Shown: piece by piece, positions 10,859 through 43,434 of the stretch | Layout: each line of letters starts with the position of its first letter | How positions within the stretch are numbered: position 1 is the stretch's first letter | Source: Euzebya sp. | GTDB taxonomy: Bacteria; Actinomycetota; Nitriliruptoria; Euzebyales; Euzebyaceae | DNA: 64,000 nt | NCBI GenBank assembly: GCA_051004735.1 | Contig: JBPCKA010000013.1 | Coordinates: 1,099 to 65,098, forward strand | Reading direction: 5' to 3' | Notes under the pieces: model-generated | The model's database searches: none | What the model was told of the DNA's origin: nothing | What the model saw: only the letters and a program-made list of their open reading frames with translations | Position numbers and translations under genes: made by a program

Positions 10859-10859
10859 A

Positions 10860-18493: not shown

Positions 18494-18503
18494 CGGCCCT
18501 TCT

Positions 18504-20452: not shown

Positions 20453-20484
20453 TCACTGCCCATCGGTCAACGGAGGCGCCAGTC

Positions 20485-22206: not shown

Positions 22207-22327
22207 GGGATGCTCCTCACGGGGCGTCAAGCCCCACGTTCTGCTGTGGAGATTCAGATTCTGCTCCGGACTGTGCCGATCACTGCCCAACTTGTCAAGG
22301 GGCGGGATCGGATCGGAGTCCACACAA

Positions 22328-22344
22328 TTAGAATGCCATTCTGC
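22328..22344. promoter_or_regulatory. IclR-box-like inverted repeat TTAGAATGCCATTCTGC (core AGAAT-N3-ATTCT at 22330-22342) upstream of the SBP gene
   Basis: Seen in sequence; one of four near-identical palindromes in this window (see 27803, 37890, 38791). Confidence 0.55.
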
Positions 22345-22355
22345 TAGCTCACGGC

Positions 22356-26082: not shown

Positions 26083-26085
26083 GGT

Positions 26086-27771: not shown

Positions 27772-27800
27772 AGCAGCTCCAGTGGGAATCGGATGCGTCG

Positions 27801-27817
27801 ATAGAATACCATTCTGC
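27801..27817. promoter_or_regulatory. IclR-box-like inverted repeat ATAGAATACCATTCTGC (core 27803-27815) in the divergent promoter region between SBP gene and DMFase-like gene
   Basis: Seen in sequence; 5-3-5 palindrome AGAAT-ACC-ATTCT. Confidence 0.55.
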
Positions 27818-27880: not shown

Positions 27881-30094
27881 GTGCCTGACGACGAAACCAC
27901 CCCTACGCACAACCCGGCCGAGCTCTCGCAGCCCTCACCGTGGGATCTGACGTTGGTCGGTTACGCAGACCCCTGGAGCGTTGCTCCGCAAGAGACCGTG
28001 CGTTTCATGGTCAGCAGTTCCCATTCGACCTATCAGGCCCAGATCGTCAGGTTGCTCCATGGCGATGATCGGCTCGAGGCGCCTGGTGTGAAGGAAGAGG
28101 TGGTTCCCACTCAGGTGGACGGGGAGTATGCGGGCCGACAGCTTTCCTATCCCACCGGTTCTGCGGTCATCGTGCCTGATCACCCCTCCCTGCGCCTGAC
28201 CGACAGTTTCACCCTGACCGCATGGATCTACCCGACGACCCCAGACAAGGGCCTTCAAGGCCTGCTGACAAAATGGTCACCGCATGATCAGGTGGGCTAT
28301 GCCTTGATGATCAATGCCCAAGGGCAACTCGAATTGTGGCTGGGCGCAGAAGGCCAGGAACCAGCCCGCTTCGCCAGCGGCGCAGGCCTGCGTAAACACC
28401 AGTGGTACTTCGTCGCGGCCACGTATGACCCTCACGCAGGGTCGGTACAGGTGTCACAGATCCCCTTCCCCTTCTATCCCAACGACACGACCGATGTCCA
28501 TCGCGAGCATCCTGTGGCTGCGGGGACCTGTGGATCTGCGAGCACACCGTTGGTGATGGCGGCCCTGAGCCAGACAATCAACCACTACAACGGAAAGATC
28601 GAGGCGCCGACCATCTACGGTGAGGTGTTGTCCCACGAAGCGTTGCTTGCCGTCGCGGGTCGAACACCCCTCGCCGGCACTACAGGATCGATCGTTGCTG
28701 CCTGGGATTTTGCTCTTGATACGCCCACCGACCAAATCCGCGACGTATCAGGCAGCAACCTGCACGGACGCACAATCAACCTGCCTGCCAGGGGCTCAAG
28801 CAGCCATCTGTTCCATGGTGGCGAGGGCTCCTGGGCCGTGGCGCCCGAAACTCACGCAGCCCTGCACTTTCACGAGGACGATCTTGAGGACTGCAGGTGG
28901 GATGTTGCGTTCGAACTGGCACTACCCGATGACCTGCCCAGCGGGGTCTATGCCGCGAAGCTGAGCGCAGGCAGCAGCCGGTATCACATTCCGTTCGTGG
29001 TGCGTCCTCCCAACCGACGCGCCACCGCACCCGTGCTGGTGCTGCTACCAACCAATTCCTACCTTGCTTACGCCAACTTTCGTGAGGAGTTCGCCGAGCG
29101 GCACGGCGTCCTTGGTCTGTACCACGATCATGGTGACGGCAGCGCAGTGTTGTACTCCTCAGCCCGAAGGCCGATCGTCAACTTCCGTCCGGGATCCAAT
29201 TTCGACATTCTGGGTGAGGCTGGAGCGCCACACCAGTTCAACGCCGATCTGTACCTGATCGACTGGTTGACGGCCAAAGAGATCGACTTTGATGTTGCCA
29301 TAGATCACGACCTGCAGACAGAAGGTGCCGACCTGTTGGGGCAGTACCGCGTCGTCATCACAGGAACACACCCCGAGTACTGGTCTGGGACAATGCTTGA
29401 TGGGCTTGAGGCCTACCTCGCCGGGGGTGGCCGTCTGATGTATCTGGGCGGCAACGGATTGATCTGGACCACGACCTTCGATCCCCACCGACCCCATGTG
29501 ATCGAACTGCGGCGCGGCGGCGGCGGCGTCCGCAACGCCAGCCCCGGAGAGCGCTATCACACCACCACGGGAGAGCTGGGTGGGCCGTGGCGAGCGCGTG
29601 GCCGTCCCCCGAATCTGCTGCTGGGCGTCGGCTCCATCGGCCAGGGCTTTGATCGCTCCTGTGGCTACCGCCGGACGCCGGAAAGCTTTGATCCCCGCTC
29701 GTCATGGATCTTCGACGGTGTCGGTGAGGACGAACCAATCGGAGAGTTCGGCCTGACCATGGGTGGCGCCGCCGGTTTTGAGGTCGATTGCGCAGACCGC
29801 TTCTTCGGCACTCCACCGCACGCCCTGGTGGTGGCCTCGGCAACGGAGTTCTCCGATACCTACGAGCACCAGCACCCAGTCCACATAGCTGGGACCGACG
29901 TCGACCTTCATGAACCCCTGCGCAGCGACATGGTGTTCTTCGAAGGCCCGAATGGGGGGGCAGTGTTCTCCGTAGGCTCGATCGCCTACTGCGGGTCCTT
30001 GTCACATAACGACTACGACAACAACGTCTCACGGATAACCCACAACGTCCTGCGACGCTTCGCCTCCGACCAGTCGACTGACCAACGTGACTGA
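27881..30094 (+). CDS. N,N-dimethylformamidase large (beta) subunit-like protein (DmfA2 homolog family)
   Basis: 737 aa, GTG start with GGGAG RBS. Collinear with the DMFase large-subunit family: N-terminal jelly-roll segment then a C-terminal catalytic-type region. No small-subunit gene nearby. The 3' end overlaps the next gene by 8 nt. Confidence 0.65.
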   Translation: MPDDETTPTHNPAELSQPSPWDLTLVGYADPWSVAPQETVRFMVSSSHSTYQAQIVRLLHGDDRLEAPGVKEEVVPTQVDGEYAGRQLSYPTGSAVIVPDHPSLRLTDSFTLTAWIYPTTPDKGLQGLLTKWSPHDQVGYALMINAQGQLELWLGAEGQEPARFASGAGLRKHQWYFVAATYDPHAGSVQVSQIPFPFYPNDTTDVHREHPVAAGTCGSASTPLVMAALSQTINHYNGKIEAPTIYGEVLSHEALLAVAGRTPLAGTTGSIVAAWDFALDTPTDQIRDVSGSNLHGRTINLPARGSSSHLFHGGEGSWAVAPETHAALHFHEDDLEDCRWDVAFELALPDDLPSGVYAAKLSAGSSRYHIPFVVRPPNRRATAPVLVLLPTNSYLAYANFREEFAERHGVLGLYHDHGDGSAVLYSSARRPIVNFRPGSNFDILGEAGAPHQFNADLYLIDWLTAKEIDFDVAIDHDLQTEGADLLGQYRVVITGTHPEYWSGTMLDGLEAYLAGGGRLMYLGGNGLIWTTTFDPHRPHVIELRRGGGGVRNASPGERYHTTTGELGGPWRARGRPPNLLLGVGSIGQGFDRSCGYRRTPESFDPRSSWIFDGVGEDEPIGEFGLTMGGAAGFEVDCADRFFGTPPHALVVASATEFSDTYEHQHPVHIAGTDVDLHEPLRSDMVFFEGPNGGAVFSVGSIAYCGSLSHNDYDNNVSRITHNVLRRFASDQSTDQRD

Positions 30095-30557
30095 TGCTGT
30101 CAACATCGCCCTGCAGGTCAACGGCCAGCAGTGTGACCTGATGATCGATATCCGAGCCACGCTGTTGGATGTACTGCGTGAACAGCTGATGTTGACCGGC
30201 GCCAAGGAAGCCTGTAACAGAGGCGAGTGCGGCACCTGCACCGTGTTGGTGGATGGCAGGAGGGTGTATTCCTGCATGGCTTTGGCCGTCATGCACGCTG
30301 GCGCGGCGGTCACCACCATCGAGGGTGTGACGCAGGACGAGACCGCCAGTCAGTTGCAACAGGCCTTCCTGCGGCACGACGCGCTGCAGTGTGGCTATTG
30401 CACCCCTGGCCAGATCCTGTCTGCCATGGGATTGCTGAGCGAGGGTCGGACCGGATCCCGCACCGAGATCCGGGAGTTCATGAGCGGCAACCTGTGCCGC
30501 TGTGGTGCGTATCCCCAGATCGTTGACGCGATCCGCGATGTGATCGGCGAGCCCTAG
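30087..30557 (+). CDS. [2Fe-2S]-binding small subunit of XDH/CO-dehydrogenase-family molybdenum hydroxylase (CoxS-like)
   Basis: CNRGECGTCTV and CGYCTPG...CRCGAY cluster motifs. Confidence 0.9.
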   Translation: MTDAVNIALQVNGQQCDLMIDIRATLLDVLREQLMLTGAKEACNRGECGTCTVLVDGRRVYSCMALAVMHAGAAVTTIEGVTQDETASQLQQAFLRHDALQCGYCTPGQILSAMGLLSEGRTGSRTEIREFMSGNLCRCGAYPQIVDAIRDVIGEP

Positions 30558-30559
30558 CG

Positions 30560-31540
30560 ATGCAAACATTCGCCTATCTCCGACCGTCTGACGCTGCCGC
30601 TGCAATTACTGGGCACCAGGGTGATCACAGCGCCTGTTTCATCGCGGGGGGCACGGATGTCCTGGGGCTATTGAAGGACGGGGTCATCGCGCCTGACGTA
30701 CTGGTGGATCTGAACGATCTTCCGCTGCAGGGCATCGAGGCTGGCACGTTGGGAGTGGTGATCGGTGCTCTGGCCCGACTGGCCGACGTGGCTGTTCATC
30801 CCGACATCAGGCGAGGCTTCCCTGTCCTCAGCCAGGCGATCATGGCCGCCGCATCGCCGCAACTCCGCAACATGGCCACTCTCGGCGGCAATCTGCTCCA
30901 ACGGACACGGTGCGGCTACTTCCGCGATCCGGTGATGCCCTGCAACAAGCGGGAAACCGGCAGCGGCTGTTCCGCGATTTCGGGAGCCAGTCGGTCACAC
31001 GCCGTCTTCGGCACCAGTCTGGACTGTGTCGCCGTTCACCCCTCTGACCCGGCTGTGGCGTTGCTGGCCCTGGACGCGGTGATCCGAACCGACGGCCCGC
31101 ATGGCCCCCGAGGCATCCCGATCGTGGACCTGCACCAGTTGCCAGGTCAAACTCCCGGCCGGGAAACCGTTCTGGAGCCAGGTGAGATCATTGTGGCCAT
31201 CGAGGTGCCCGCTACTCCCCTCGCGCGGCGCTCGTGCTATGTCAAGGTGGCAGACCGGGCTTCGTTCGACTTCGCACTGGTCGCTGCCGCCGTTGCGATG
31301 GATCTCCGGGACGGAATCGTCAGAACCGTCCGCGTGGCCCTGGGTGGTGTGGCCCCGATCCCGTGGCGCGCAGTCCCCGTCGAGGACGCGCTGTCTGGCC
31401 AGCCACTGAACCGGGCGACGATTGAGGCTGCGGCCCATGCCATGACGATTCATGCCCAACCACTGCGGGACAACGCGTTCAAGGTCAACCTCTTACCTCA
31501 CGTGATCCGCCGAGCCCTGATGACCGTCGAGGGACTGTAG
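30560..31540 (+). CDS. FAD-binding medium subunit of molybdenum hydroxylase (CoxM/XdhB-like)
   Basis: AGGTDVLGLLK and NMATLGGNL FAD-binding motifs. Confidence 0.85.
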   Translation: MQTFAYLRPSDAAAAITGHQGDHSACFIAGGTDVLGLLKDGVIAPDVLVDLNDLPLQGIEAGTLGVVIGALARLADVAVHPDIRRGFPVLSQAIMAAASPQLRNMATLGGNLLQRTRCGYFRDPVMPCNKRETGSGCSAISGASRSHAVFGTSLDCVAVHPSDPAVALLALDAVIRTDGPHGPRGIPIVDLHQLPGQTPGRETVLEPGEIIVAIEVPATPLARRSCYVKVADRASFDFALVAAAVAMDLRDGIVRTVRVALGGVAPIPWRAVPVEDALSGQPLNRATIEAAAHAMTIHAQPLRDNAFKVNLLPHVIRRALMTVEGL

Positions 31541-33684
31541 TGCGGCGCGAATCGGTGGGCCCTTCTGCCACCCGAGTTGACGGTCAGGTGAAGGTCAGCG
31601 GCGCGGCAACATACACCACTGACGTCGTCCTGCCGCAGCAGGTACATGCCGTCGTCGTGCAGGCCACCGTGGCGACGGGGCGCATCCGGCACATCGAGTT
31701 GGCGGCGTCGCTGGCAGCTCCGGGGGTCCTTGGCGTCCTCACTCACCACAACACCCCAGCGCTTGAGGAAGTGGCCACCTTCCCGCAGGGACCCGCAGGT
31801 CAGCGGATGGCTCCGCTTCAAAGCGATGTCGTGTACTTCGACGGTCAACCTGTCGCCGTCGTCATCGCTGAAACCAGGCTGCAGGCTGTCCATGCCGCAG
31901 AACTGGTCCAAGTGGACATTCAGCCCGGATCGCATGCGCCGTCACTGTGGACCGACCGTCCCGGCGCTGCACCGCTCAGCATCTTCGGGGAATCTCCGGA
32001 CTCTGTGCGTGGCAACCCCGACGCCGCACTGGCTGCGGCGGAGGTCCGCCTAGAGCGGCGGTACAGCACGCCGACCGAGCATCATCATCCACTTGAACCT
32101 GGTGCCACCGTTGCCTGTTGGGACGGCGACTCCCTGACGGTCTATGACAGCACCCAATGGATCTTCGGTGTGCGTGAAGCGCTGTGTGTGACATTGGGAT
32201 TGTCCCAGGATCGCGTACGGGTGCAGTCCCCCTTCGTCGGGGGCGCGTTCGGGAGCAAGGGCATGGTATGGCCCCACGTCGTCTTGACGGTTCTGGCCGC
32301 ACGCCATGTTGGTCGGCCCGTGAAGTTGACGCTTGACCGCGGGCAGATGTTCACCCTGCTGGGGTACCGCTCGCCGACGATCCAGCGCCTGTCCCTGGGG
32401 GCGACAGCGTCGGGAACCTTGACCGCGCTCGTCCACGACACCACCCAGCAGACCTCAATGTTTCAGGAGTTCGCCGCTGGTGTCGGCTTCATGTCGCGCA
32501 GCCTCTACGTCTGTCCGAACGTCGCAGTGCGCCACCGTGTGCTTCCCATCAATGCGCCGACCCCAACGGTCATGCGTGCGCCTGGCGAGGCCGTCGGGAG
32601 CTTCGCGCTGGAGACCGCCATGGATGAGCTGGCGGTCACGCTGTCCGTCGATCCGATCCAACTTCGGCTTCGCAACCATGCTGAAATCGATCCCCATTCC
32701 GGCATGCCGTGGTCCAGCAACGCGTTACGCGAGTGCTATCTGCTGGGCGCTGACCGCTTCGGATGGGACGCCCGCAGCGCAGCACCCGGATCGATGCGAG
32801 ATGGCCATCTTCAACTTGGGTGGGGCGTGGCATCGGCGACATATGCGGTGAACAGTGAACCGGCAAACGCTTGGGTGCGTCTGCGCGCTGACGGAACGGC
32901 AACGGTCGCCTGCGGTACCCAGGATCTGGGAACCGGGACCTACACGACCATGGCCCAGATCGCTGCCGAGGCGCTGGGACTACCTGTGGATCATGTCTCA
33001 GCGGAGTTGGGCGACACCGAATTGCCTCGGGCACCCCATTCAGGCGGGTCACAAACCGCCGCCAGCGTGCTTCCCGCAGTGTGGTCGGCCGCCCAGTCTG
33101 TGATCGCCCAACTGAACTCACTGGCTCAGATGTCAGCAGCCAGGGAAAGCCCCAACGCCATCCTCCGGCGCCACGGCCTGGCGCAGATCGAGGGACGCAG
33201 CAGCACCCCGTCCCCCGGTGCCGCCAACCGCTTTGCCATGCAGTCCTTCGGCGCCCAGTTTGCCGAGGTCGCGGTGGATCCCGATCTAGCCCAGGTGAGG
33301 GTGACCCGCTTTGTGGGTGTCTTCGGCGCGGGCCGCATCGTCAACCAGACCACGGCCCGCAGCCAGATGATCGGTGGAATCGTCGGCGGAATCGGCATGG
33401 CACTGCTGGAGCGCACGGTGACCGATCCGCGCTCCGGGCGGGTGGTCTCCCCAAACCTCAGCGCGTACCTGGTTCCCACACAGGCAGACATCCCCGCGAT
33501 CGACGTCAGCTTTGTCGAGGAGGTTGATCCCCACGTCAACTCCCTTGGGATCAAAGGTGTTGCGGAACTCGGAATAGTGGGCGTGGCGGCCGCGATTGGC
33601 AATGCGATCTTCCACGCCACCGGCCGGCGGATCAGGGACCTACCGATCACCTGCGACACGTTGTTGGGTGCGACACACGGCTGA
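31540..33684 (+). CDS. Molybdopterin-binding large subunit of XDH-family molybdenum hydroxylase (aldehyde oxidase/CoxL-like)
   Basis: 714 aa; GTG start overlapping the previous stop by 1 nt; GSKG, VRAPGE, GTQDLGTGT, GAGRIVN and GVAELG segments typical of the Mo-cofactor subunit. Confidence 0.85.
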   Translation: MRRESVGPSATRVDGQVKVSGAATYTTDVVLPQQVHAVVVQATVATGRIRHIELAASLAAPGVLGVLTHHNTPALEEVATFPQGPAGQRMAPLQSDVVYFDGQPVAVVIAETRLQAVHAAELVQVDIQPGSHAPSLWTDRPGAAPLSIFGESPDSVRGNPDAALAAAEVRLERRYSTPTEHHHPLEPGATVACWDGDSLTVYDSTQWIFGVREALCVTLGLSQDRVRVQSPFVGGAFGSKGMVWPHVVLTVLAARHVGRPVKLTLDRGQMFTLLGYRSPTIQRLSLGATASGTLTALVHDTTQQTSMFQEFAAGVGFMSRSLYVCPNVAVRHRVLPINAPTPTVMRAPGEAVGSFALETAMDELAVTLSVDPIQLRLRNHAEIDPHSGMPWSSNALRECYLLGADRFGWDARSAAPGSMRDGHLQLGWGVASATYAVNSEPANAWVRLRADGTATVACGTQDLGTGTYTTMAQIAAEALGLPVDHVSAELGDTELPRAPHSGGSQTAASVLPAVWSAAQSVIAQLNSLAQMSAARESPNAILRRHGLAQIEGRSSTPSPGAANRFAMQSFGAQFAEVAVDPDLAQVRVTRFVGVFGAGRIVNQTTARSQMIGGIVGGIGMALLERTVTDPRSGRVVSPNLSAYLVPTQADIPAIDVSFVEEVDPHVNSLGIKGVAELGIVGVAAAIGNAIFHATGRRIRDLPITCDTLLGATHG

Positions 33685-33690
33685 TGCGGA

Positions 33691-35376
33691 TCAGGGCACC
33701 GTGGTCGCCCCGGTGCTGGCCGAACCGACCAGCGAGGCGTACTTGGCGAACACGCCCGAGGGGTAGCGGGATGTCGGGGGTTCCCAGTCCTTGAGCCGCG
33801 AGGCAACGTCGACGTCCAACACCTCGATGGTGCGACTGGCCACGTCGATCCTGATCATGTCCCCATCCTCAAGGGCGGCCAGTGGACCGCCGACCGCAGC
33901 CTCAGGCGCCACATGTCCGATCATGAACCCGTTGGTCGCGCCACTGAAGCGCCCATCGGTGATTAGGGCCACTGAATCTCCCAGGCCCTCGCCCAAGATG
34001 GCCCCCGTGACCGAGAGCATCTCGCGCATCCCCGGTCCTCCCCGCGGTCCCTCATAGCGGATGACCACAACGTCGCCAGGTGCAATCCGTCCCTCGATGA
34101 CCGCGGCATACCCATCCTCCTCGCAGTCAAAGATCCGCGCGGGGCCGGTGTGGGAGGTCAAGGTGTGCGCGGTGATCTTCACCACCGATCCCTGTGGTGC
34201 CAGGTTGCCGCTGAGCACGACCAGGCCACCCTCTGAGCGAAGTGGCCGGTCCAGGGGCAGCACGACCTGCTGACCCTCGGTTTCGACGACGTCCTGAACC
34301 TCCTCGCCCAGACTTCGGCCGGTGACGGTCAGCGCTGAGCCGTCGATGTACCCACCGTCGATCAGTCGGCTGGTCAGCAGGGCAATGCCGCCGGCGCGGT
34401 GCAGGTCGACGGCGGCGAAACGTCCGCCCGGCAACAGGTCGCACAGCAGTGGCGTCCGTCTGCTGGTGCGATCGATGTCCTCCAGGGTCAGATCCACGCC
34501 AACCTCCTTGGCCAGTGCCAGCAGGTGGAGAACGGCATTGGTCGACCCGCCACTTGCCGCCACCGCCGCCACGGCGTTGTCAAAGGCAGCACGAGTCAAG
34601 ATCTGACGGGGGCGGATATCTCGCGCCAACACATCCATGATCAGGGCACCGGCCCGCTCGGCTGCCTGGCCCTTGGTCTGGTCCACCGCGGGGATGGAGT
34701 TGAAACCCACCGGCGACAGCCCGATGGTCTCCATCACCATCGACATCGTGTTCGCGGTGAACTGTCCGCCGCAGGCTCCCGCACCCGGGCAGGCGACCCG
34801 CTCCATCTCGTGAAGGTCCTCCTCGTCAAGCAGACCAGCCGCAACCGCTCCGATTGCCTCAAACACCTCGCCCATTGCCAGATCACGGCCGCGGAATCGA
34901 CCGGGCATGATCGAACCGCTGTACAACACCATTCCGGGTCGGTCCAACCTGGCCAAGGCCATCGCCGCAGCCGGAACGGTCTTGTCACACGCAACGATGC
35001 AGACCATGGCGTCGAACATGTGTCCTCGACCGACCAGTTCGATCGAGTCGGCGATCAGCTCTCGACTGACCAGCGACGCCTTCATCCCCTCGGTGCCCAT
35101 CGTGACCCCATCGGAGATCGCAATGGTATTGAACTCCATCGGGGTGCCCTCAGCCTGCCGCACACCTGCCTTGACCCGTTCCGCCAGGCTGCGATGGTTC
35201 AGGTTGCAGGGCATGGTCTCGATCCATGCATGTGACACGCCCACGATGGGCCGCTGCAGATCCTCCGGTGAGAACCCTGTGCCGTACAGGTAGGCCCTGG
35301 CCGCGGCGCGCGAACGCCCCTCATACATGACGCGACTGGGCAGCTGCGCCATGTTGATCTGGGGAGATGCGCTCAT
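33691..35376 (-). CDS. IlvD/EDD-family dehydratase (dihydroxy-acid / sugar-acid dehydratase)
   Basis: ORF 33691..35685. Start at MSASPQINMAQLPSRVMYEGRSRAAARAYLYGTGF (35376). CPGAGACGG Fe-S cluster motif and C-terminal ITDGRFSGATNGFMIGHVAPEA signature. Confidence 0.85.
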   Translation of the reverse strand: MSASPQINMAQLPSRVMYEGRSRAAARAYLYGTGFSPEDLQRPIVGVSHAWIETMPCNLNHRSLAERVKAGVRQAEGTPMEFNTIAISDGVTMGTEGMKASLVSRELIADSIELVGRGHMFDAMVCIVACDKTVPAAAMALARLDRPGMVLYSGSIMPGRFRGRDLAMGEVFEAIGAVAAGLLDEEDLHEMERVACPGAGACGGQFTANTMSMVMETIGLSPVGFNSIPAVDQTKGQAAERAGALIMDVLARDIRPRQILTRAAFDNAVAAVAASGGSTNAVLHLLALAKEVGVDLTLEDIDRTSRRTPLLCDLLPGGRFAAVDLHRAGGIALLTSRLIDGGYIDGSALTVTGRSLGEEVQDVVETEGQQVVLPLDRPLRSEGGLVVLSGNLAPQGSVVKITAHTLTSHTGPARIFDCEEDGYAAVIEGRIAPGDVVVIRYEGPRGGPGMREMLSVTGAILGEGLGDSVALITDGRFSGATNGFMIGHVAPEAAVGGPLAALEDGDMIRIDVASRTIEVLDVDVASRLKDWEPPTSRYPSGVFAKYASLVGSASTGATTVP

Positions 35377-35413
35377 AATCGTCTGTCCTTCTGTTGACCC
35401 TGATTGGGCACTG

Positions 35414-36181
35414 CTAATAGATGCGGGCGAGCAGGCCGCCATCCACCACGATGTCGATGCCGCTGAGATATGAGGCATCGTCGGAGGCGAGGAACAACGC
35501 GACGTTGGCGACGTCGCGGGCAGAGGCAAAGCGGCGTAGCGGGTACCGCTCGGTGACCTGGGCTCGGGCGACCTCAGGATCTGGTTGAAAAGCAAAGAAC
35601 TGTTCCACCATCGGCGTGTCCACATCGCCCGGACAGATGGTGTTGCAGCGGATGTTTTCTGGGCCGTGGGCCGTGGCGACCGCACGGCACATCGCGCGCA
35701 ACCCGCCCTTCATGGCGCCGTAGGCCGCCATGTCCGGATCGCCCACGATGCCAAGCAGCGAAGCGGTGATGATGATCGACCCTCCACCGCGCGCCCGCAG
35801 GTGCGGCATCGCCTGCTGGATGCCCAGGTACACACCACGCAGGTTGGTTGCGTGCATCGCGTCCCAGTCATCCTGCGGGGTGTCCTCCAACAGTCCCATT
35901 GCCTGGACCGCAGCGTTGGCGAACAGCACGTCGAGTCCGCCGAAGTGATCCACGCAATCGTTGATCACCTGGGCGTTGCCCTGGCTGGTGGAAATGTCGG
36001 CGACCACTGCACGTGCCTTTCCCCCTGCATCGACGATGGTCTGGACCGTGGCCCTCGCACCGACTTCATCGATGTCGGCACACACCACCTGTGCGCCTTC
36101 CTCGGCGAACCTGATCGACGCCGCGCGACCGATACCCCGTCCGGCACCTGTCACCACCGCAGCCTTGCCGGACAGTCTCAC
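35414..36181 (-). CDS. SDR-family oxidoreductase
   Basis: TGAGRGIGRA Rossmann motif, NAA, YGAMKGG catalytic Tyr-x3-Lys. Confidence 0.85.
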   Translation of the reverse strand: MRLSGKAAVVTGAGRGIGRAASIRFAEEGAQVVCADIDEVGARATVQTIVDAGGKARAVVADISTSQGNAQVINDCVDHFGGLDVLFANAAVQAMGLLEDTPQDDWDAMHATNLRGVYLGIQQAMPHLRARGGGSIIITASLLGIVGDPDMAAYGAMKGGLRAMCRAVATAHGPENIRCNTICPGDVDTPMVEQFFAFQPDPEVARAQVTERYPLRRFASARDVANVALFLASDDASYLSGIDIVVDGGLLARIY

Positions 36182-37512
36182 TGGACCGCCCGTAGGTCAT
36201 GCCGGTCGTGGGCCGACGCCAACTCAGTGTTCTTCTCGGGCTCCGCCACCACGGTCGCGGCTGCCGCAGCGACCGCCTCACGGGTCTGGTCAAGATCATC
36301 CTGGGTGTGTGCTGCCGACACGTACAGCAGACCGCGTGAGATCACGTTAACCCCGTGGTCCAGCAGTGCCTCGGCGAACCGTGCATAGGTAGTGGTGTCG
36401 GTATCCAACGTGTCAGCCTGTGTGTCCACGGGCTGGGAGCTGCAGAAGGCGTGAGCCATGCCCCCCAACTGGTTGACGACAAGCGGTAAACCGGCGGCGC
36501 CACATTCCTGACGTAACAGTTGGGCCAACGCATCGCCCATGGCATCAAGTCTGGGATAGATCTCATCCCCATGATCTTCCAGTTCACTGATCGCCGCCAG
36601 CGCGGCGCTGGCACACACCGGGTTGGCGTTGAAGGTGCCCACGTGCTTGACCCGCCCTGCCACGACCTCATCCATCACATCGCGGCGACCTGCCACCGCA
36701 CTGATCGGGAAGCCGGCCCCCAAGGCCTTGCCCAGCACGACCAGGTCAGGTACCACCCCGAATCGTTCCTGTGCCCCGCCCAGTGCCAGTCGGAAGCCGG
36801 TGATCACCTCATCAAAGACCAACAACGCACCCGCTTCTGTGATCAGTTCTTGCGCCGCCTGCAGATAGCCTGGGTCGGGAAACAGACAACCGCCGTTGAC
36901 CGCTAGCGGTTCCATGATCACGGCCGCGACGTCATCGCTCAGCGCCCCGCGAAGCGCACCAAGGTCATTCCAGGTACACATCGTGACCGCTGATGACGCC
37001 TGAGGATCCTGACCACCGGTGGAGGGAAGCGCAGCGGCCATGCCAGGAATTCCAATGGCCAGGGGATCCAACCAGCCGTGGAAGTGGCCCAGGAACTTGA
37101 TCACCCTGCGGCGACCTGTTGCTGCCCGCGCAATCCGCAGTGCAGCGTGAACTGCTTCGCTCCCACTGTTTGAGAACACGCAAAGGTCAGCGCACGGCAC
37201 CGTTCGGCACACCGCCTCGGCAAGTTCGGCCTCCAACGGATGACAGGCGCCGTAGCCAATCCCTGTTGACAGTTGCTTCTCAACCGCTCTGGTCACCCGC
37301 AGTGGGGAATGTCCCAGCAGCATCGGGCCGAACGCCAGGGCGTAGTCGATGTAGGTATTGCCGTCGACATCGCTCAGGTGGGCGTCCTTGCCCCCGACCA
37401 TGGTGATCGGAACAGGTCGTTGTGGAGCGCGGTATGCCGTTGCGACGCCGCCGGCCAGGCTGCGGCGGGCACGGTCCTGCTGCTCACGCGAACGTGCGTA
37501 GCGATCAGTCAT
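36178..37512 (-). CDS. Class-III (aspartate aminotransferase superfamily) PLP-dependent aminotransferase / aminomutase
   Basis: SGSEAV...DEVITGFR...LGKALGAGFP (PLP-Lys) signature of omega-aminotransferase/GSA-aminomutase family. Confidence 0.8.
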   Translation of the reverse strand: MTDRYARSREQQDRARRSLAGGVATAYRAPQRPVPITMVGGKDAHLSDVDGNTYIDYALAFGPMLLGHSPLRVTRAVEKQLSTGIGYGACHPLEAELAEAVCRTVPCADLCVFSNSGSEAVHAALRIARAATGRRRVIKFLGHFHGWLDPLAIGIPGMAAALPSTGGQDPQASSAVTMCTWNDLGALRGALSDDVAAVIMEPLAVNGGCLFPDPGYLQAAQELITEAGALLVFDEVITGFRLALGGAQERFGVVPDLVVLGKALGAGFPISAVAGRRDVMDEVVAGRVKHVGTFNANPVCASAALAAISELEDHGDEIYPRLDAMGDALAQLLRQECGAAGLPLVVNQLGGMAHAFCSSQPVDTQADTLDTDTTTYARFAEALLDHGVNVISRGLLYVSAAHTQDDLDQTREAVAAAAATVVAEPEKNTELASAHDRHDLRAVQ

Positions 37513-37877
37513 CCAGCAGTCCCGACAGCACCCGGGTCGAAGTAGGCCCTGACGCTGGTGAACTTGCCGTCACGGACCTGCACCACATTGACCCCGCGGA
37601 ACGCGTGACGACCACCGTCATGGTCAGTCAGGACCGCCTCCCACTCAAGGCAGGCCTGGTCGCCGTCGCTGACCTCGTGAACGATGTCAACTTCCAACCC
37701 GGGATAGTCCCGGATCTCATCGGCGTAAAAGGTGGCAATCTCCTCGTGTCCACGCAACGCCTCGCCCGAGGGTGGAAAGACCACTGCATCGGTATGGTAA
37801 TAGCCCAGCACAGCCGATAGATCCCGCCGGCACTCTGCCGCCCAGTAGGCCTCCGCTACCTCGCGAGGTGATGTCAT
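37509..37877 (-). CDS. SnoaL-like / NTF2-family small protein (ketosteroid-isomerase fold)
   Basis: 122 aa; AEAYWAAECRRDLSAVLGYYHTDAV...YFDPG is the SnoaL/NTF2 pattern; first gene of a four-gene operon with 4-nt overlaps. Confidence 0.65.
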   Translation of the reverse strand: MTSPREVAEAYWAAECRRDLSAVLGYYHTDAVVFPPSGEALRGHEEIATFYADEIRDYPGLEVDIVHEVSDGDQACLEWEAVLTDHDGGRHAFRGVNVVQVRDGKFTSVRAYFDPGAVGTAG

Positions 37878-37887
37878 AGGTGGTTCA

Positions 37888-37904
37888 GCAGAATACTATT
37901 CTGC
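37888..37904. promoter_or_regulatory. Perfect 17-bp inverted repeat GCAGAATACTATTCTGC between the SnoaL operon start (37877) and the iclR start (37959)
   Basis: Seen in sequence; the 8-1-8 palindrome is the best copy of the four AGAAT-N3-ATTCT sites. Confidence 0.65.
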
Positions 37905-37958
37905 GGATGACTGCGCAAGATGTCGTTATCTGGACGGCAGCCATCAGGACAGCGTGTG

Positions 37959-38774
37959 ATGATGTGGACCGTCCCCGAACTGGAACACCGTGTGAAGCCT
38001 CCCAACTACCCAATCGAGTCAGTCGACAACGCGCTGAAGCTGGTCCTCGCGTTGATGGACCGACCGGCCCTGGCCGTGTCTGAGGCAGGGGAACTGCTTG
38101 AGGTCGCTCCGTCGACGGCGCACCGCCTGCTGTCGACCCTGGCCTACCGCGGCTTCGTCGAACAGGATCCTGCCACCCGCCTGTACCGCTCTGGGCCCGT
38201 GCTCCTGAAGTTGGGACTCACTGCAGTCCGCAACCTGGATCTACGCCGCCGTGCCAGACCGATCATCGAAGACCTCAGCCAGGAGGTCGGGGAGACCGTC
38301 AATCTGGTGATACTCCAGGGCACTGACATCCTCTTCATCGACTGTGTGGAGGCACCTAGCATCGTGCGGGTGGGCTCACGAATGGGTGTGCTCCTGCCAG
38401 CTCATTGCACCGCAGGCGGCAAGGCCCTGCTGTCCACCCTGTCAACCGAGGAACTGCGGGAGCTCTACCCCGAGCCGCGCCTGGAACAACTGACCACGAA
38501 CTCCTTCACCAAGCGCGCGGACCTGGAACAGGAATTGGAAGTCACGCGGACACGCGGGTTCGCGACGAATGATGAGGAGAGCGAGAACGGCTTGAGCGCC
38601 TTCGCCGCCCCGATCTGCGACCGGGAGGGGCATGCCCTCGGTGCCATCGCCATCGCCGCCCCCAGCGGTCGAATCACAGCGGACCGTATCACTGTGATCG
38701 GTGAAGCCGTGCAACACGCCGCGCAACAGATCAGCGACAGTGCGGCCGACGCGATCAGCGTAATGGTTGACTGA
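37959..38774 (+). CDS. IclR-family transcriptional regulator
   Basis: N-terminal wHTH (SVDNALKLVLAL...LAVSEAGELLEVAPSTAHRLLSTLAYRGFVE) and C-terminal IclR effector domain (GLSAFAAPICDREGHALGAIAIAAP). Confidence 0.85.
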   Translation: MMWTVPELEHRVKPPNYPIESVDNALKLVLALMDRPALAVSEAGELLEVAPSTAHRLLSTLAYRGFVEQDPATRLYRSGPVLLKLGLTAVRNLDLRRRARPIIEDLSQEVGETVNLVILQGTDILFIDCVEAPSIVRVGSRMGVLLPAHCTAGGKALLSTLSTEELRELYPEPRLEQLTTNSFTKRADLEQELEVTRTRGFATNDEESENGLSAFAAPICDREGHALGAIAIAAPSGRITADRITVIGEAVQHAAQQISDSAADAISVMVD

Positions 38775-38788
38775 CTCCGTCCCGCATG

Positions 38789-38805
38789 ACAGAATCAGAT
38801 TCTGG
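38789..38805. promoter_or_regulatory. Inverted repeat ACAGAATCAGATTCTGG (core 38791-38803) downstream of iclR and upstream of the MBL/gentisate operon
   Basis: Seen in sequence; 7-3-7 palindrome CAGAAT-CAG-ATTCTG. Confidence 0.55.
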
Positions 38806-38865: not shown

Positions 38866-39846
38866 GTGGTTGTCATCCCGTTGCAACCCGTTGACTCGAT
38901 GGTGGTGACGACACTGGTCGACAACACCGTCGACATGTTCATGCCGAACCAGGGGCCGGCCCACAGGCTCACGCCGATGTCAGAACATGGCAGCACCATC
39001 GCCTCAACCCTTGAGGGTGGCCACGTCTGGGAACACCCACGCGTCGAGCATGGTTTCTCAGCCCTGGTCAGTGTGACAACCGCGACCACACGCAACACAA
39101 TGCTGTTCGACGCCGGCCGCACCCCCGATGGACTTGCGCACAACCTTCGCTTTCTTGGCATCGCGCCCGATGAGATTGAAGCCGTGGTCCTCAGCCATGG
39201 CCATTTTGACCACACCACCGGCATGGATGGGTTCATTCGCGCGCTGGGCCGATCAAATCTGCCCGTCATCATCCATCCGGATTTCTGGCACCGGCGACGG
39301 ATAACGCTTCCGGGTCATGAGCCCTGGGAGTTGCCCTCGACCAGCAAGTCGGCGCTCGAGGGTGCGGGCTTTGATGTCATCGAGGATCGCCAACCCTCCT
39401 TCCTGTTTGGTAAAAGCCTGCTGATCACCGGTGAGGTGGATCGGACGAACGACGTCGAACCGGGCTTTCCGATTCAACAGGCGTTGCGCGATGGCCGTTG
39501 GTCGGACGACTCCAAGGTCCTGGATGACCAGGCGCTGGTCGTTCATGTCCGCGACAAGGGACTGGTTGTGATGACTGGATGTGGTCACGCCGGAGTGGTC
39601 AACACCGTCGCTTACGCGCAGCGGTTGACCGGGGTCGACCAGATCTATGCGATCATCGGCGGCTTCCACCTGAACGGCCCGATCTTCGAACCTCTGATCC
39701 CATTCGTGTGCGCAGCCTTTCGCGACTTCGCCCCCGCGGTCATCGTCCCCACACACTGCACCGGCTGGGCAGCCATTCACGCGCTGGCGCGAGAATTTCC
39801 CGATGCGTTCGTGCCCAACAGCGTCGGAACCCGCTTCTCGTTGTGA
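38866..39846 (+). CDS. MBL-fold metallo-hydrolase
   Basis: HGHFDHTTG metal-binding motif and downstream TGCGHAG / GGFH segments. Confidence 0.75.
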   Translation: MVVIPLQPVDSMVVTTLVDNTVDMFMPNQGPAHRLTPMSEHGSTIASTLEGGHVWEHPRVEHGFSALVSVTTATTRNTMLFDAGRTPDGLAHNLRFLGIAPDEIEAVVLSHGHFDHTTGMDGFIRALGRSNLPVIIHPDFWHRRRITLPGHEPWELPSTSKSALEGAGFDVIEDRQPSFLFGKSLLITGEVDRTNDVEPGFPIQQALRDGRWSDDSKVLDDQALVVHVRDKGLVVMTGCGHAGVVNTVAYAQRLTGVDQIYAIIGGFHLNGPIFEPLIPFVCAAFRDFAPAVIVPTHCTGWAAIHALAREFPDAFVPNSVGTRFSL

Positions 39847-39922
39847 GTGCCGGTTGCACCCTTGCCGCATTTCCTTATTCTGTAGGATGGAACGCAGTTC
39901 TGCTGTAGACAGGAGGTGTAGC

Positions 39923-41023
39923 GTGACCCAACAACCAGTTGAGGGCTCCCCGGATACCGTTGATGAGTTCTATCGGGACCTGGCGCTGAACGACCTCGCG
40001 CCGCTGTGGCCTATCTCCGCTGAGTTGATGCCACCTTCGCCGAAGCCGGCCACCGTTGCGCACCTGTGGCGTTGGAAGACGCTGCGGGCCTTCGCAGAGC
40101 GCGCGGGTGAGTTGATCACCATTGAGCGAGGTGGAGATCGACGAGTGTTGTCGTTGGTGAATCCGGGCCTGGGCGGCGCGCCGTATGCCTCCTCCACATT
40201 ATGGGGTGCCGTTCAGTATCTGGGGCCTCGAGAGTCTGCGCCGGGGCACCGGCATACGCCCTCGGCAATCCGTTTTGTCGTTGAAGGCGACGGGGTGTGG
40301 ACCACGGTCGATGGTGATGCCTGCGATATGCACTCCGGTGATCTGATCCTCACGCCGTCGATGCACTGGCATGATCACAACAACCCCAGTGACCACGCCA
40401 TGATCTGGTTCGACGGTCTGGATCTGCCGACCATGAAGGCTCTGGACGCCATCTTCTTCGAGCCGTACGAACCCGATGACCTCCAACCCGTCCGGGGTCA
40501 TAATCTGTCCGAGCAGACCTGGGGCAATGGCGGGCTGCTCCCCCGCCACCACGATCATGATCGTCCTGCCTCGCCGCTATTGGTGTATCGCTGGGCGGAC
40601 ATGGACCGATCACTGGACACGTTGCTGCAGCGGCAGGGTGGACCGCTCGCGGTGATGGAATACACCAACCCGCTGACCGGAGGCCCCGCGCTGCCCACCT
40701 TGGGCTGCGAAATGCACCGCATCATGCCCCAGGGGCTGACCACCGCGTACCGCAAGACCGGGAGTTCGGTCTACGTGGTCTATCGCGGCGCGGGTTATTC
40801 CATCATCGACGGCCAGCGATTCGATTGGAGTCATGGCGACATGTTCGTGGTGCCGTCATGGTCGACCCTTGAACACCAGGCCAGCGAGCCGTCGGATCTG
40901 TTCGCGATCAGCGATCGTCCGATCTTGCAGGCTCTGCACGTCTTCCGTGAGGAGTGGCTGGGGCAGCAGTCAATCGTCTCCCACTTCGGCGACGAGCAGT
41001 CGCAGATCGGTGTACCGCAATGA
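39923..41023 (+). CDS. Gentisate 1,2-dioxygenase-like bicupin
   Basis: GTG start preceded by AGGAGG. HRHTPSAIRFVVEGDGVWTTVDG...MHSGDLILTP...WHDH matches the GDO first-cupin signature; second cupin YVVYRGAGYSIIDGQRFDW. Confidence 0.75.
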   Translation: MTQQPVEGSPDTVDEFYRDLALNDLAPLWPISAELMPPSPKPATVAHLWRWKTLRAFAERAGELITIERGGDRRVLSLVNPGLGGAPYASSTLWGAVQYLGPRESAPGHRHTPSAIRFVVEGDGVWTTVDGDACDMHSGDLILTPSMHWHDHNNPSDHAMIWFDGLDLPTMKALDAIFFEPYEPDDLQPVRGHNLSEQTWGNGGLLPRHHDHDRPASPLLVYRWADMDRSLDTLLQRQGGPLAVMEYTNPLTGGPALPTLGCEMHRIMPQGLTTAYRKTGSSVYVVYRGAGYSIIDGQRFDWSHGDMFVVPSWSTLEHQASEPSDLFAISDRPILQALHVFREEWLGQQSIVSHFGDEQSQIGVPQ

Positions 41024-41856
41024 GATTGCTGAGCGTCAGAACCGCCCAAGGCCACCGCGCAGGGCGCCTGGACGGCGATGACGTCGTCCTGCTGCCCTTC
41101 AGCGACGTCGGCGCTCTGCTTGCCTCCGGAGATGACTGGCGTGCAGCCGCTGAGGCGAGCGGGCCCAGCCAACCCTATGAGGGCAGCGACCTTGCTCCGG
41201 TTGTGCCGGCCCCCAGCAAGGTGCTGTGCCTGGGTTTGAACTACGCCAGCCACATCCTGGAGATGGGCCGGGAGCTTCCCCCGCACCCGACCATGTTCGC
41301 CAAGTTCGCCCGAACCCTGACCGGACCCAACGACCCCATCACCTTGCCAACCGAATCTGATGAGGTTGACTGGGAGGTCGAGCTCGCACTGGTCATCGGC
41401 GCGACAGCCCGACACGTTTCCGTCGACCAGGCGGGTGCGGTGATCGCGGGGTACACCATCGCCAATGACATCAGCATGCGGGACTGGCAGTGGCGTTCCG
41501 CACAGTGGCTTCAAGGCAAGATGTTTGAGGCCAGCACGCCGGTCGGTCCCATGCTGGTCACGACAGACGAGTTCGATGGTGATCCCGGCGCCCCTGACGT
41601 GGAGGTCATCTGCGAGGTGGACGGCCAGGTGATGCAGCAATCGCGGACCGGTGACCTGCTGTTCACCCCCGCCGACATCGTGGCCTATGCCAGCTCAATC
41701 CTGACGTTGGATCCCGGCGATCTGCTGTTGACCGGGACACCAGGAGGGGTCGGTGCCGGCCGTGATCCGAAGGTGTTTCTGAAACCAGGGCAGACCGTTC
41801 GAACCTCCATCGAGGGAATCGGTCAACTGAGCAACCTGTGCCAGGAGCCAGGGTGA
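41020..41856 (+). CDS. Fumarylacetoacetate-hydrolase (FAH) family protein (fumarylpyruvate hydrolase-like)
   Basis: ATGA overlap with the dioxygenase stop; KVLCLGLNYASH, WEVELALVIG, GYTIANDISMRDWQ, LLTGTPGGVG FAH-fold motifs. Confidence 0.8.
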   Translation: MRLLSVRTAQGHRAGRLDGDDVVLLPFSDVGALLASGDDWRAAAEASGPSQPYEGSDLAPVVPAPSKVLCLGLNYASHILEMGRELPPHPTMFAKFARTLTGPNDPITLPTESDEVDWEVELALVIGATARHVSVDQAGAVIAGYTIANDISMRDWQWRSAQWLQGKMFEASTPVGPMLVTTDEFDGDPGAPDVEVICEVDGQVMQQSRTGDLLFTPADIVAYASSILTLDPGDLLLTGTPGGVGAGRDPKVFLKPGQTVRTSIEGIGQLSNLCQEPG

Positions 41857-42350
41857 GTGAGGGCGAGGGACCCTGGGAGTCCGCGACGGCTGTCCGCGCG
41901 GACAACGGCGAGTTGGATAGAACACTGCGCGGCCTGCTGCAACAGGTGCCCTCCTCACGCCTGGGCGACCGGCCACAGGAAGAGGAGTGGAACCTGGCAC
42001 AGAACCTGGCGCACCTCGGGGAGTTTCCGGCGTTCTTCGCCCAAGAACTCAAGGTGATCCTGAGTGCCGCGGAGGAGGACCTGCAGGTGGGCCGAACCCA
42101 CGACCACCCAGATCGAAATCTTGCGATCGATTCGGCATCCGACCAGGACCTGGACCAACTCAAGGACGCCATAGACAGCGCACTCGATCAACTCGCCCGG
42201 GTCCTTGAGTCGCTGCAGGACGACGACCTGACCCGCGTGATCACCAATCGCAAATACGGTCCCGAACCGCTGAAGGACTACCTGAAGCGCTACATCCTGG
42301 GCCACAAGCGGGCGCATGTCGATCAGTTGAGTCGCGCCCTGCGGGCATGA
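41853..42350 (+). CDS. DinB_2-family protein, candidate mycothiol-dependent maleylpyruvate isomerase (short form)
   Basis: GTGA overlap with the FAH stop; EEWNLAQNLAHLGEFPAFFAQEL...HVDQL DinB-type metal motif; sits where the isomerase of the gentisate pathway is expected. Confidence 0.45.
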   Translation: MSEGEGPWESATAVRADNGELDRTLRGLLQQVPSSRLGDRPQEEEWNLAQNLAHLGEFPAFFAQELKVILSAAEEDLQVGRTHDHPDRNLAIDSASDQDLDQLKDAIDSALDQLARVLESLQDDDLTRVITNRKYGPEPLKDYLKRYILGHKRAHVDQLSRALRA

Positions 42351-43433: not shown

Positions 43434-43434
43434 G

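Follow-up and report, generated by a model that had tools for sequence, protein, structure and literature searches.

What does a dehydratase of the IlvD/EDD family do in an operon that also encodes a SnoaL-like protein, a class-III aminotransferase and a short-chain dehydrogenase/reductase (SDR)? This question is raised by a 64,000-nt stretch of DNA from Euzebya sp. (referred to here as the window), in which these four genes lie side by side. An earlier note, made from the letters of the window alone, had suggested that the operon converts an amino- or keto-sugar acid, possibly together with a neighbouring molybdenum hydroxylase (Mo-hydroxylase). We analyzed the window along with 16 related loci tabulated outside it. 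The dehydratase (hereafter IlvD) is very probably a dedicated catabolic paralogue of dihydroxy-acid dehydratase (DHAD) within a conserved island controlled by an IclR-family regulator, and soil bacteria probably use this island to import and degrade a nitrogen-containing compound.

The dehydratase and its clade

As judged from its sequence, IlvD is a DHAD-class enzyme in which all catalytic residues have been kept, and not a sugar-acid dehydratase. It passes the ilvD cut-offs (653.3 versus 618.15 for TIGR00110 and 759 versus 644 for NF002068) and fails the models of sugar-acid enzymes (404 versus 882 for L-arabinonate dehydratase, 204 versus 808 for YjhG and 214 versus 708 for Edd). Among solved structures, the DHADs of Synechocystis (570 bits), M. 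tuberculosis (515) and Arabidopsis (about 488) score above the two pentonate dehydratases (350 bits for L-arabinonate dehydratase and 263 bits for the other). The best 120 homologues found among 5.8 billion proteins are 72-100% identical, and every one of these 120 that carries a name in its source is called "dihydroxy-acid dehydratase". Two of them, P0097 and P0118, are 72-74% identical and adjoin leuCD, ilvBN, ilvC and leuA-type genes. Moreover, the marks of sugar-acid dehydratases are missing from IlvD, which has SGAT instead of SGTA, Phe206 instead of Gly at alignment position 261, and a C-terminus ending in TTVP instead of His. The profile scores, the solved-structure scores and the identity to IlvDs linked with leuCD/ilvBNC all place the enzyme outside the sugar-acid clade.

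Catalytic and contact residues were mapped via PMC12137828 and PMC9314677. IlvD has the three Cys ligands of the iron-sulfur cluster, the Mg2+ ligands (Asp, Asp, carbamylatable Lys and Glu) and the catalytic Ser with its neighbouring Thr. The motifs CDKT and SGAT, which in the scheme of Melse et al. resemble those of the promiscuous Sulfolobus enzyme (PMC9314677), were discarded as class markers, being uninformative and common to the housekeeping sister clade described below. DHAD-class enzymes also turn over short polyhydroxy acids, e.g., L-threonate and D-glycerate (PMC9314677).

A neighbour-joining tree of the best 120 homologues, built from these close homologues without an outgroup, divides them into a cluster-linked group and a sister group. 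The exact split was recovered in 70 of 100 bootstraps, and the Jaccard index of the best-matching split never fell below 0.9. Members of the cluster clade are on average 77% identical to each other and those of the sister clade 80%, versus 71% between the two, and the branching does not follow taxonomy. All 17 cluster-side members whose surroundings were checked are located in the cluster, versus none of the four sister-side members checked: P0097 and P0118 stand beside branched-chain amino acid (BCAA) genes, P0105 near leuCD/ilvB (three of the four adjoining leuCD/ilvB) and P0103 alone. By context, therefore, no BCAA role is indicated for the cluster clade, whose checked members (17/17) belong to a catabolic cluster, and it is sister members that sit beside leuCD/ilvBNC. 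The earlier note had named two outcomes as telling against its reading, grouping of IlvD with canonical ilvD and lack of conservation of the neighbours; IlvD does group with canonical ilvD, and the neighbours are strongly conserved. In the locus of P0105 (L090, 3619-7680), the sister-clade IlvD gene is co-oriented with, and translationally coupled to, genes for a 2-hydroxyacid dehydrogenase, an HpcH/HpaI aldolase and an RraA-like protein, with leuCD/ilvB 2-4 kb off. This context may represent a second, independent recruitment of DHAD.

Neither clade shows any variation at the catalytic residues C57, C130, C202, D89, D131, K132, E452, S478 and T481. Other positions discriminate the clades. F59L and H61 flank the first cluster cysteine and I91V adjoins a Mg ligand. 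V168M and Y206F also discriminate the clades, with Y172F largely following. M168, F172 and F206 are the equivalents of Ile177, Phe181 and Tyr215 of Arabidopsis DHAD (AtDHAD), the three hydrophobic substrate contacts of that enzyme (PMC12137828). K315L separates the clades completely (100% versus 100%), and R/Q482N is found four residues after the catalytic Ser478, directly after Thr481. Several further changes occur in the N-terminal helix, described as the substrate-recognition helix of the partner subunit (PMC5770437). These altered pocket residues would fit a changed substrate but are no proof of one. In comparison with the housekeeping DHADs of Synechocystis (6NTE), M. tuberculosis (6OVT) and Arabidopsis, the island enzyme is alike in fold, domains, the three cysteines, Mg ligands, carbamylatable lysine and Ser/Thr loop, whereas it differs in its place in an IclR-controlled catabolic operon instead of a BCAA context, and in forming a clade of its own with K315L, R/Q482N, H61 and changes at the Ile177 and Tyr215 equivalents and in the recognition helix.

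The operon, its conservation and its presumed regulator

Four co-directional minus-strand open reading frames fill positions 33691-37877 exactly, as had been claimed, and all four family assignments were upheld by Pfam. The 4-nt overlap claimed for all junctions holds for the first two, an ATGA shared by the SnoaL and aminotransferase genes (37509-37512) and a GTGA shared by the aminotransferase and SDR genes (36178-36181), but not for the third, where a 37-nt spacer separates the SDR stop codon (35416-35414) from the IlvD ATG at 35376. This start codon, giving the 561-aa protein, is supported by homologues and has a Shine-Dalgarno-like GAAGGA just before it. The alternative GTG at 35685, the sole way to close the spacer, was not accepted; it would overlap the SDR gene by 272 nt. 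An exact-protein look-up of the 561-aa IlvD returned no record because the NCBI-deposited model (P0001, 553 aa, 100% identical) starts 8 codons later. Orthologous operons are often tighter: L083 has a gap of 1 nt, and L085 an overlap of 17 nt. GC content is even across the window (61-68%), and composition therefore shows no sign of a foreign insert. A search of the plasmid collection with the operon DNA gave no match. At the far end, the IlvD gene and the convergent gene for the Mo subunit of the hydroxylase stop 6 nt apart (33684-33691), leaving no space for a terminator hairpin, and the terminator scan found none there.

The best explanation of this arrangement is that the SnoaL, aminotransferase, SDR and IlvD genes form one transcription unit, the most conserved core of the island. 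A search for the gene combination among 8 million papers returned nothing relevant, and the suspicion that the operon is undescribed was supported: it is genuine and conserved, and the searchable literature does not describe it. Using the aminotransferase as query against one genome per species, we found 11 orthologous loci with 64-82% identity, the next matches being at or below 47%. They belong to Euzebyales, Propionibacteriales/Nocardioidaceae, Gaiellales, Mycobacteriales, unclassified Actinomycetota and Limnocylindria (Chloroflexota), and IlvD homologues led to seven more contigs. The aminotransferase-SDR-IlvD trio recurs in the 16 other loci, in both Actinomycetota and Chloroflexota (counts for each gene are given in Table 1). 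The gap in the SDR count is L084, where a zinc-dependent alcohol dehydrogenase stands in, and the gap in the IlvD count is L005, where the contig ends. The leading SnoaL gene, which had been flagged as unusual, is an integral and conserved member (13 of the 16 other loci) that precedes either the aminotransferase gene or the GH78-like gene. Peptide-type ABC importers and other hydrolases are further usual companions. Gene order is shuffled among lineages while membership stays constant, which argues for function and not inherited synteny.

The operon had also been thought to be controlled from the best copy of a palindrome, and it does adjoin O1, the best copy of a recurring palindrome with the behaviour of an IclR operator. 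The two arms of O1 (37885-37895 and 37897-37907) are 91% complementary, and the element fills the gap between the SnoaL start at 37877 and the divergent IclR gene. When up to 3 mismatches were allowed, the whole palindrome matched the window 3 times versus 0.04 expected. The core AGAAT-N3-ATTCT is present in 4 copies (22330, 27803, 37890 and 38791) versus 0 expected, all of them in promoter gaps of island operons; a search with an N5 spacer gave no matches, the correct spacer being N3. It is plausible that the centre of O1, TAGTAT on one strand and TACTAT on the other, serves as -10 element for both divergent genes. O2 overlaps the second hexamer of a promoter-like site (38767-38795), O3 sits 26 nt upstream of the start codon (27774) of the first substrate-binding protein (SBP1), and O4 lies within the intergenic gap 22207-22355. 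At orthologous positions, two copies were found in L001 and one in L002. Copies orthologous to O1 stand upstream of SnoaL in L001, L002, L083 and L084, and a copy in L001 is orthologous to O2. Degenerate copies precede the SnoaL or dioxygenase gene in L083, L084, L007 and L011.

The presumed binder of these palindromes is the IclR-family protein, which has the features expected of an IclR repressor: helix-turn-helix and effector domains, an inverted repeat in its own divergent promoter, and repeats before the regulated operons. Its best NCBIfam model is BhcR, at 192 bits below the cut-off of 350. Since the four operators lie in promoter gaps and have copies at orthologous positions, the four-gene operon can be regarded as a unit of one IclR regulon spanning about 9830-42350, and control of the island by the divergent IclR regulator via four putative operators is the best explanation of the data. 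In L089, a GntR regulator is found in place of IclR, and there is no SDR gene between the aminotransferase and IlvD genes.

A candidate pathway and its rivals

The aminotransferase remains below the HemL cut-offs (345 versus 527 and 358 versus 398). Its best matches among solved structures are glutamate-1-semialdehyde aminomutases (GSAMs; 250-281 bits), followed by PctV (232), D-phenylglycine aminotransferase (194) and beta-transaminases (about 172). It shares with HemL and the transaminase relatives the fold, the pyridoxal phosphate lysine (K262) and an Arg32-type arginine (R28, the equivalent of GSAM Arg32). It differs from HemL in that the Phe-Glu406 dipeptide is deleted and that R393 (in VISRGLL) occupies this site in 16/16 orthologues, as arginine does in transaminases of the class. 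According to work on GSAMs and omega-transaminases, Glu406 excludes alpha-keto-acid co-substrates and suppresses transaminase activity, whereas arginine at that site binds such co-substrates. The Arg32-type carboxylate site serves non-alpha amines. Because Glu406 is lost, arginine stands at its site and R28 is kept, the enzyme is predicted to be a true transaminase and not an aminomutase. By analogy with beta- and gamma-amino-acid transaminases, it may be read as holding its amine substrate by a carboxylate some carbons from the amine. The SDR matches no specific equivalog model and no sugar dehydrogenase equivalog, its best solved structures being generic (about 157 bits); it does pass the broad cut-off of the glucose-1-dehydrogenase subfamily (228 versus 215). 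Its strand beta2 ends in Asp (VVCADID), which suggests a preference for NAD(H). For the SnoaL protein, the solved-structure search found no informative relatives, and a single-sequence AlphaFold model with NTF2-like topology (predicted local distance difference test score 61) was too poor for a fold search.

Our best overall explanation, which we consider about evenly poised between right and wrong, is that a recruited DHAD paralogue, a transaminase and an SDR act together in a catabolic island for a nitrogen-containing compound. Two Opp/Dpp-type ABC systems would import this peptide- or glycoside-like compound, which would then be taken apart by the GH78-like protein, the SMP30 lactonase, asparaginase II, and the cyclase-type, alpha/beta-hydrolase-like and metallo-beta-lactamase-fold (MBL) hydrolases. 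In many genomes, a module of gentisate-type dioxygenase, FAH and DinB proteins would cleave an o-hydroxy aromatic acid part. The specific three-step scheme for the core enzymes, in which direction, step order and substrate class are inferred, is more tentative, and we would sooner doubt it than rely on it. In this scheme, the aminotransferase would strip a hydroxy-acid fragment of an amine in the beta or gamma, not the alpha, position to the carboxylate, and the NAD-type SDR would adjust a neighbouring carbonyl or hydroxyl. The IlvD paralogue ([2Fe-2S]/Mg2+) would then dehydrate the (2R)-2,3-dihydroxy acid so formed, and its product, a 2-oxo (3-deoxy) acid, would pass into central metabolism. 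In one version, a beta-amino-alpha-hydroxy acid would be converted to a 3-oxo-2-hydroxy acid, a 2,3-dihydroxy acid and finally a 2-oxo acid, the order of steps being the gene order. In another version, a gamma-amino-alpha,beta-dihydroxy acid would be dehydrated and transaminated to a 2,4-dioxo acid cleavable by an FAH-type acylpyruvate hydrolase, and in some genomes the IlvD product may be such a 2,4-dioxo acid. If L315 and N482 line the pocket, these uncharged residues in place of Lys315 and Arg/Gln482 would suit an ammonium-bearing substrate.

It is possible, although we hold it to be doubtful, that the clade constitutes an unrecognised functional class of DHAD type acting on an amine-bearing 2,3-dihydroxy acid. 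Example substrates would be a gamma-amino-alpha,beta-dihydroxy acyl unit, which occurs in zwittermicin- and amicoumacin-type antibiotics, or a 4-amino-4-deoxy aldonic or aldaric acid. Space for the ammonium group would be gained by the loss of the invariant Lys315 and Arg/Gln482. If this were true, the island would encode a route not described so far by which a nitrogen compound, glycosylated or peptide-like, is broken down, and this route would be widespread in arid and oligotrophic soils. Named candidate substrates, namely amicoumacin, zwittermicin, gougerotin-type nucleosides, novobiocin, antimycin, hygromycin A, mycosporines and glucosylglycerate, were considered and none was adopted, as each accounts for part of the genes but not for the rest. 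The benzoxazinoid bxd cluster was dropped as a model as well, as the BxdA paper mentions no aminotransferase.

Several observations weigh against our best overall explanation. The M/F/F substrate contacts fall within the range of bona fide DHADs (V/F/F in Synechocystis), so activity on 2,3-dihydroxyisovalerate remains compatible with them; the GH78-like, SMP30/gluconolactonase (SGL) and SDR proteins together also fit a sugar-oxidation route; in the Propionibacteriales loci, neither FAH nor the gentisate/salicylate 1,2-dioxygenase-like bicupin (GDO) is encoded within 10 kb, so that coupling to FAH is not universal; and all carriers of the cluster are uncultured, being metagenome-assembled genomes or metagenome contigs.

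The main rival, which extends the reading of the earlier note, is a non-phosphorylative Entner-Doudoroff/Weimberg-like route for a sugar or amino sugar freed by the GH78-like hydrolase, and we judge it unlikely. Here the SDR would be a sugar 1-dehydrogenase, SMP30 the lactonase, and IlvD the (amino)sugar-acid dehydratase; the aminotransferase would remove the amino group, and FAH or the Mo-hydroxylase would finish the route. The family assignments of the enzymes of the Weimberg/Dahms and L-rhamnose/L-fucose routes (XylB-XylC-XylD-XylX; LRA1-6) allow a direct comparison. As in those routes, an SDR, an SMP30-type lactonase, an IlvD/EDD enzyme and FAH stand in one regulon with a glycoside-hydrolase-like protein, and the broad glucose-1-dehydrogenase cut-off passed by the SDR points the same way. 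The island differs from them in that its dehydratase is of the DHAD class, far from all sugar-acid dehydratases by the scores given above (404 versus 882; 350 and 263 bits) and without SGTA, Gly261 and the C-terminal His, and in that its core has an aminotransferase and a SnoaL protein. SGAT and the Phe at alignment position 261 do recall the promiscuous Sulfolobus enzyme, but SGAT and CDKT are shared by the sister clade in BCAA contexts and are no sign of sugar use. The match of FAH to a sugar enzyme (8GSR, 178 bits) is set against its pairing with a gentisate-type dioxygenase and a best solved match other than 8GSR. For the Mo-hydroxylase, its place behind an operator copy and its recurrence in L087 speak for the route, and its absence from 15 of the 16 loci speaks against it. 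In addition, the importers are of peptide type, many amidases and peptidases are left unexplained, and family scans of the island turned up neither an aldolase nor an aldehyde dehydrogenase.

The remaining readings are less probable still. An assimilatory order, in which a released hydroxy-keto acid is reduced by the SDR, dehydrated by IlvD and then aminated, would parallel the sequence ketol-acid reductoisomerase, DHAD and transaminase, the last two of which are the established end of BCAA synthesis. IlvD is indeed very near the housekeeping DHADs, and the GSAM-like subgroup includes alpha-amino-acid transaminases such as the D-phenylglycine enzyme (194 bits); yet the genes run aminotransferase-SDR-IlvD, the Arg32-type carboxylate site used for non-alpha amines is kept, and the importers, hydrolases and ring-cleavage module form a degradative context, which makes this order improbable. 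That IlvD is an ordinary housekeeping enzyme with unrelated travelling neighbours would agree with its equivalog score, its NCBI name and its intact catalytic residues, but we find it more improbable again: the same partners are found across two phyla with rearranged order and constant membership, operon and operator are shared with catabolic genes, the clade is distinct, with invariant K315L and non-taxonomic branching, and the BCAA contexts are occupied by sister-clade enzymes. Self-resistance within a biosynthetic gene cluster, as with AstD and aspterric acid, is barely credible. A second DHAD copy in a cluster is a known signpost of self-resistance and SnoaL-like proteins are common in polyketide clusters, but the loci examined all proved to be without genes that form a scaffold, be it by a polyketide synthase, a nonribosomal peptide synthetase, a terpene route or otherwise, and are dominated by binding-protein-dependent importers, hydrolases and the ring-cleavage module. 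Like AstD-type second DHADs (AstD mutations are cited in PMC12137828), the island enzyme is a paralogue outside BCAA operons with pocket differences that include the Ile177 equivalent; unlike them, it has an uptake and degradation context and belongs to a clade widespread across phyla.

What we rate as new under the preferred reading, recruitment of a DHAD paralogue into catabolism, is that a core Fe-S biosynthetic enzyme appears to have been taken, with pocket changes, into a conserved degradative operon, and that neither operon nor island is described in the searchable literature. It would be a natural case of a biosynthetic Fe-S enzyme moved into degradation by a few changes in its pocket. 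Herbicides and antibiotics are aimed at DHAD, and genome mining for inhibitors is guided by extra copies of it; a widespread catabolic paralogue clade would be a systematic false positive in such work. The clade also appears to be systematically mis-annotated, each named member being a plain "dihydroxy-acid dehydratase". Furthermore, it could supply dehydratases for the functionalised dihydroxy acids needed by cell-free cascades (PMC9314677), and conservation of the island indicates that uncultured Actinomycetota and Chloroflexota make use of some nitrogen-containing substrate.

Genes of the wider island

The island extends over about 32 kb (9830-42350) and carries the four AGAAT-N3-ATTCT copies. 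Its genes were assigned by Pfam and NCBIfam scans and are listed, together with the operators, in Table 1.

Table 1. Genes and putative operators of the island in the window, with the number of the 16 related loci in which each gene was found
Feature	Position	Strand	Details	Related loci
Asparaginase_II (PF06089) amidohydrolase	9830-10939	-	369 aa; 326 bits	7
SMP30/gluconolactonase (SGL) protein	10860-11789	-	309 aa; SGL 294 bits	7
GH78-like (alpha-L-rhamnosidase-like) six-hairpin protein	11747-14152	-	801 aa; Bac_rhamnosid6H 61 bits	9
Cyclase-family (PF04199) metal hydrolase	14149-15135	-	328 aa	5
Weakly alpha/beta-hydrolase/S9-like protein	15132-16442	-	436 aa	
Opp/Dpp-type ABC importer 2	16473-22206	-	Substrate-binding protein, two permeases, two ATPases	
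Operator O4	22328-22344		AGAATGCCATTCT; upstream of ABC importer 2 and the hydrolase genes after it	
Opp/Dpp-type ABC importer 1	22356-27774	-	Lipoprotein SBP1, two permeases, fused ATPase; SBP_bac_5, BPD_transp_1, ABC_tran + oligo_HPY	
Operator O3	27801-27817		AGAATACCATTCT; between ABC importer 1 (-) and DMFase-like/Mo-hydroxylase genes (+)	
N,N-dimethylformamidase (DMFase) beta-subunit-like protein	27881-30094	+	737 aa; DMFA2_C 296 bits; with Laminin_G_3 domain	0
PaoABC-like molybdenum hydroxylase	30087-33684	+	2Fe-2S 156 aa, FAD 326 aa, Mo 714 aa	1
IlvD/EDD dehydratase, [2Fe-2S] DHAD class	33691-35376	-	561 aa; ILVD_EDD_N 399 bits, ILV_EDD_C 237 bits	15
Classical SDR	35414-36181	-	255 aa; adh_short_C2 208 bits	15
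Class-III aminotransferase, GSAM-like subgroup	36178-37512	-	444 aa; Aminotran_3 194 bits	16
SnoaL/NTF2-like protein	37509-37877	-	122 aa; SnoaL_2 68 bits; first operon gene	13
Operator O1 (best palindrome)	37885-37907		Core GCAGAATA-N-TATTCTGC at 37888-37904; 42-bp SnoaL/IclR gap, divergent promoter region	
IclR-family regulator	37920-38774	+	284 aa; HTH_IclR + IclR_C	8
Operator O2	38789-38805		AGAATCAGATTCT; upstream of MBL-GDO-FAH-DinB operon	
Metallo-beta-lactamase-fold (MBL) hydrolase	38866-39846	+	326 aa; Lactamase_B	7
Gentisate/salicylate 1,2-dioxygenase-like bicupin (GDO)	39803-41023	+	Real start probably later than 39803	6
FAH-family hydrolase	40954-41856	+	FAA_hydrolase 220 bits; real start probably later than 40954	7
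DinB_2/MDMPI_N-like protein	41838-42350	+	170 aa; kept after the FAH gene in L011 and L086	

The GH78-like protein scores 169 bits against the rhamnosidase B structure 2OKX, and apart from the tabulated loci its gene is also found at the truncated edge of L086 and in L088. The cyclase gene likewise occurs in L088. Orthologues of the 436-aa protein were found in L002, L010, L011, L083 and L085, with a 441-aa counterpart in L088. The asparaginase II, SGL, GH78-like, cyclase, DinB and VOC proteins gave no match in NCBIfam, and the solved-structure search with MBL and SBP1 yielded generic or uncharacterised relatives only. The two importers are arranged in tandem (16473-27774), each preceded by its own operator copy. 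Both substrate-binding proteins have a Tat-like signal and a lipobox (SRRQLLKRLG...LLAAC in SBP1 and NRREVLKRLG...LLAAC in the other, SBP2), from which their start codons were placed. SBP2-type homologues with 51-54% identity adjoin the aminotransferase-SDR-IlvD trio in L003, L004 and L006.

The DMFase-like and Mo-hydroxylase genes form a plus-strand unit (27881-33684) behind O3. The DMFase-like homologue was found in the window and in none of the 16 related loci. The Mo-hydroxylase is below the cut-offs of PaoC (585 bits versus 1180) and PaoA (196 versus 322), and its orthologues, with 63-70% identity, were found only in L087 (Euzebyaceae), where they diverge from SnoaL and are without a DMFase-like gene. 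The link to this enzyme suggested in the earlier note is accordingly not general. The Mo-hydroxylase is probably co-regulated in this window, because it follows the operator copy at 27803, and it is a lineage-specific accessory.

In the MBL-GDO-FAH-DinB operon, GDO falls short of its equivalog cut-offs (299.5 versus 442.1 for TIGR02272 and 285 versus 650 for the MabB model), with 3NST/2PHD as best solved structures (307 bits). FAH is nearest to 6J57 (212 bits), followed by the L-2,4-diketo-3-deoxyrhamnonate hydrolase 8GSR, and it adjoins a GDO-like gene in 6 loci. The family composition of this operon, together with IclR, is like that of the actinobacterial gentisate pathway (dioxygenase, fumarylpyruvate hydrolase, mycothiol-dependent maleylpyruvate isomerase and IclR). 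It differs in that the dioxygenase scores 300 versus 442 and is closest to 3NST/2PHD, that DinB has only 170 aa, and that the module is optional: a two-domain VOC/Glyoxalase_3 protein is encoded directly beside IlvD in L084, L087 and L089, all of which are without the gentisate-type dioxygenase.

A sarcosine-oxidase-like FAD enzyme is present in L007, L086, L087 and L089 and may perform an alternative C-N oxidation step in these lineages; the L086 copy scores 207 bits against the N-methyltryptophan oxidase model (cut-off 257). Peptidases of families M20, M1, S9 and S15 also recur among the loci. In Paenibacillus sp. OV219 (L014, 8698-12542), an aminotransferase homologue (41% identity) is followed by an SDR (33%) with no IlvD. 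With an M20 peptidase and a RidA-family protein encoded on its flanks, this pair hints at amines derived from peptides, but at such identities it was not used as evidence.

Just outside the island on the left, a 758-aa protein (6931-9207) has three CWB2 cell-wall-binding repeats and a weak beta-helix match, and a 152-aa open reading frame (9333-9791) gave no family match. On the right, the boundary is formed by the housekeeping genes for aspartate-semialdehyde dehydrogenase (asd) and aspartokinase (ask, with ACT domains) at 42375-44703.

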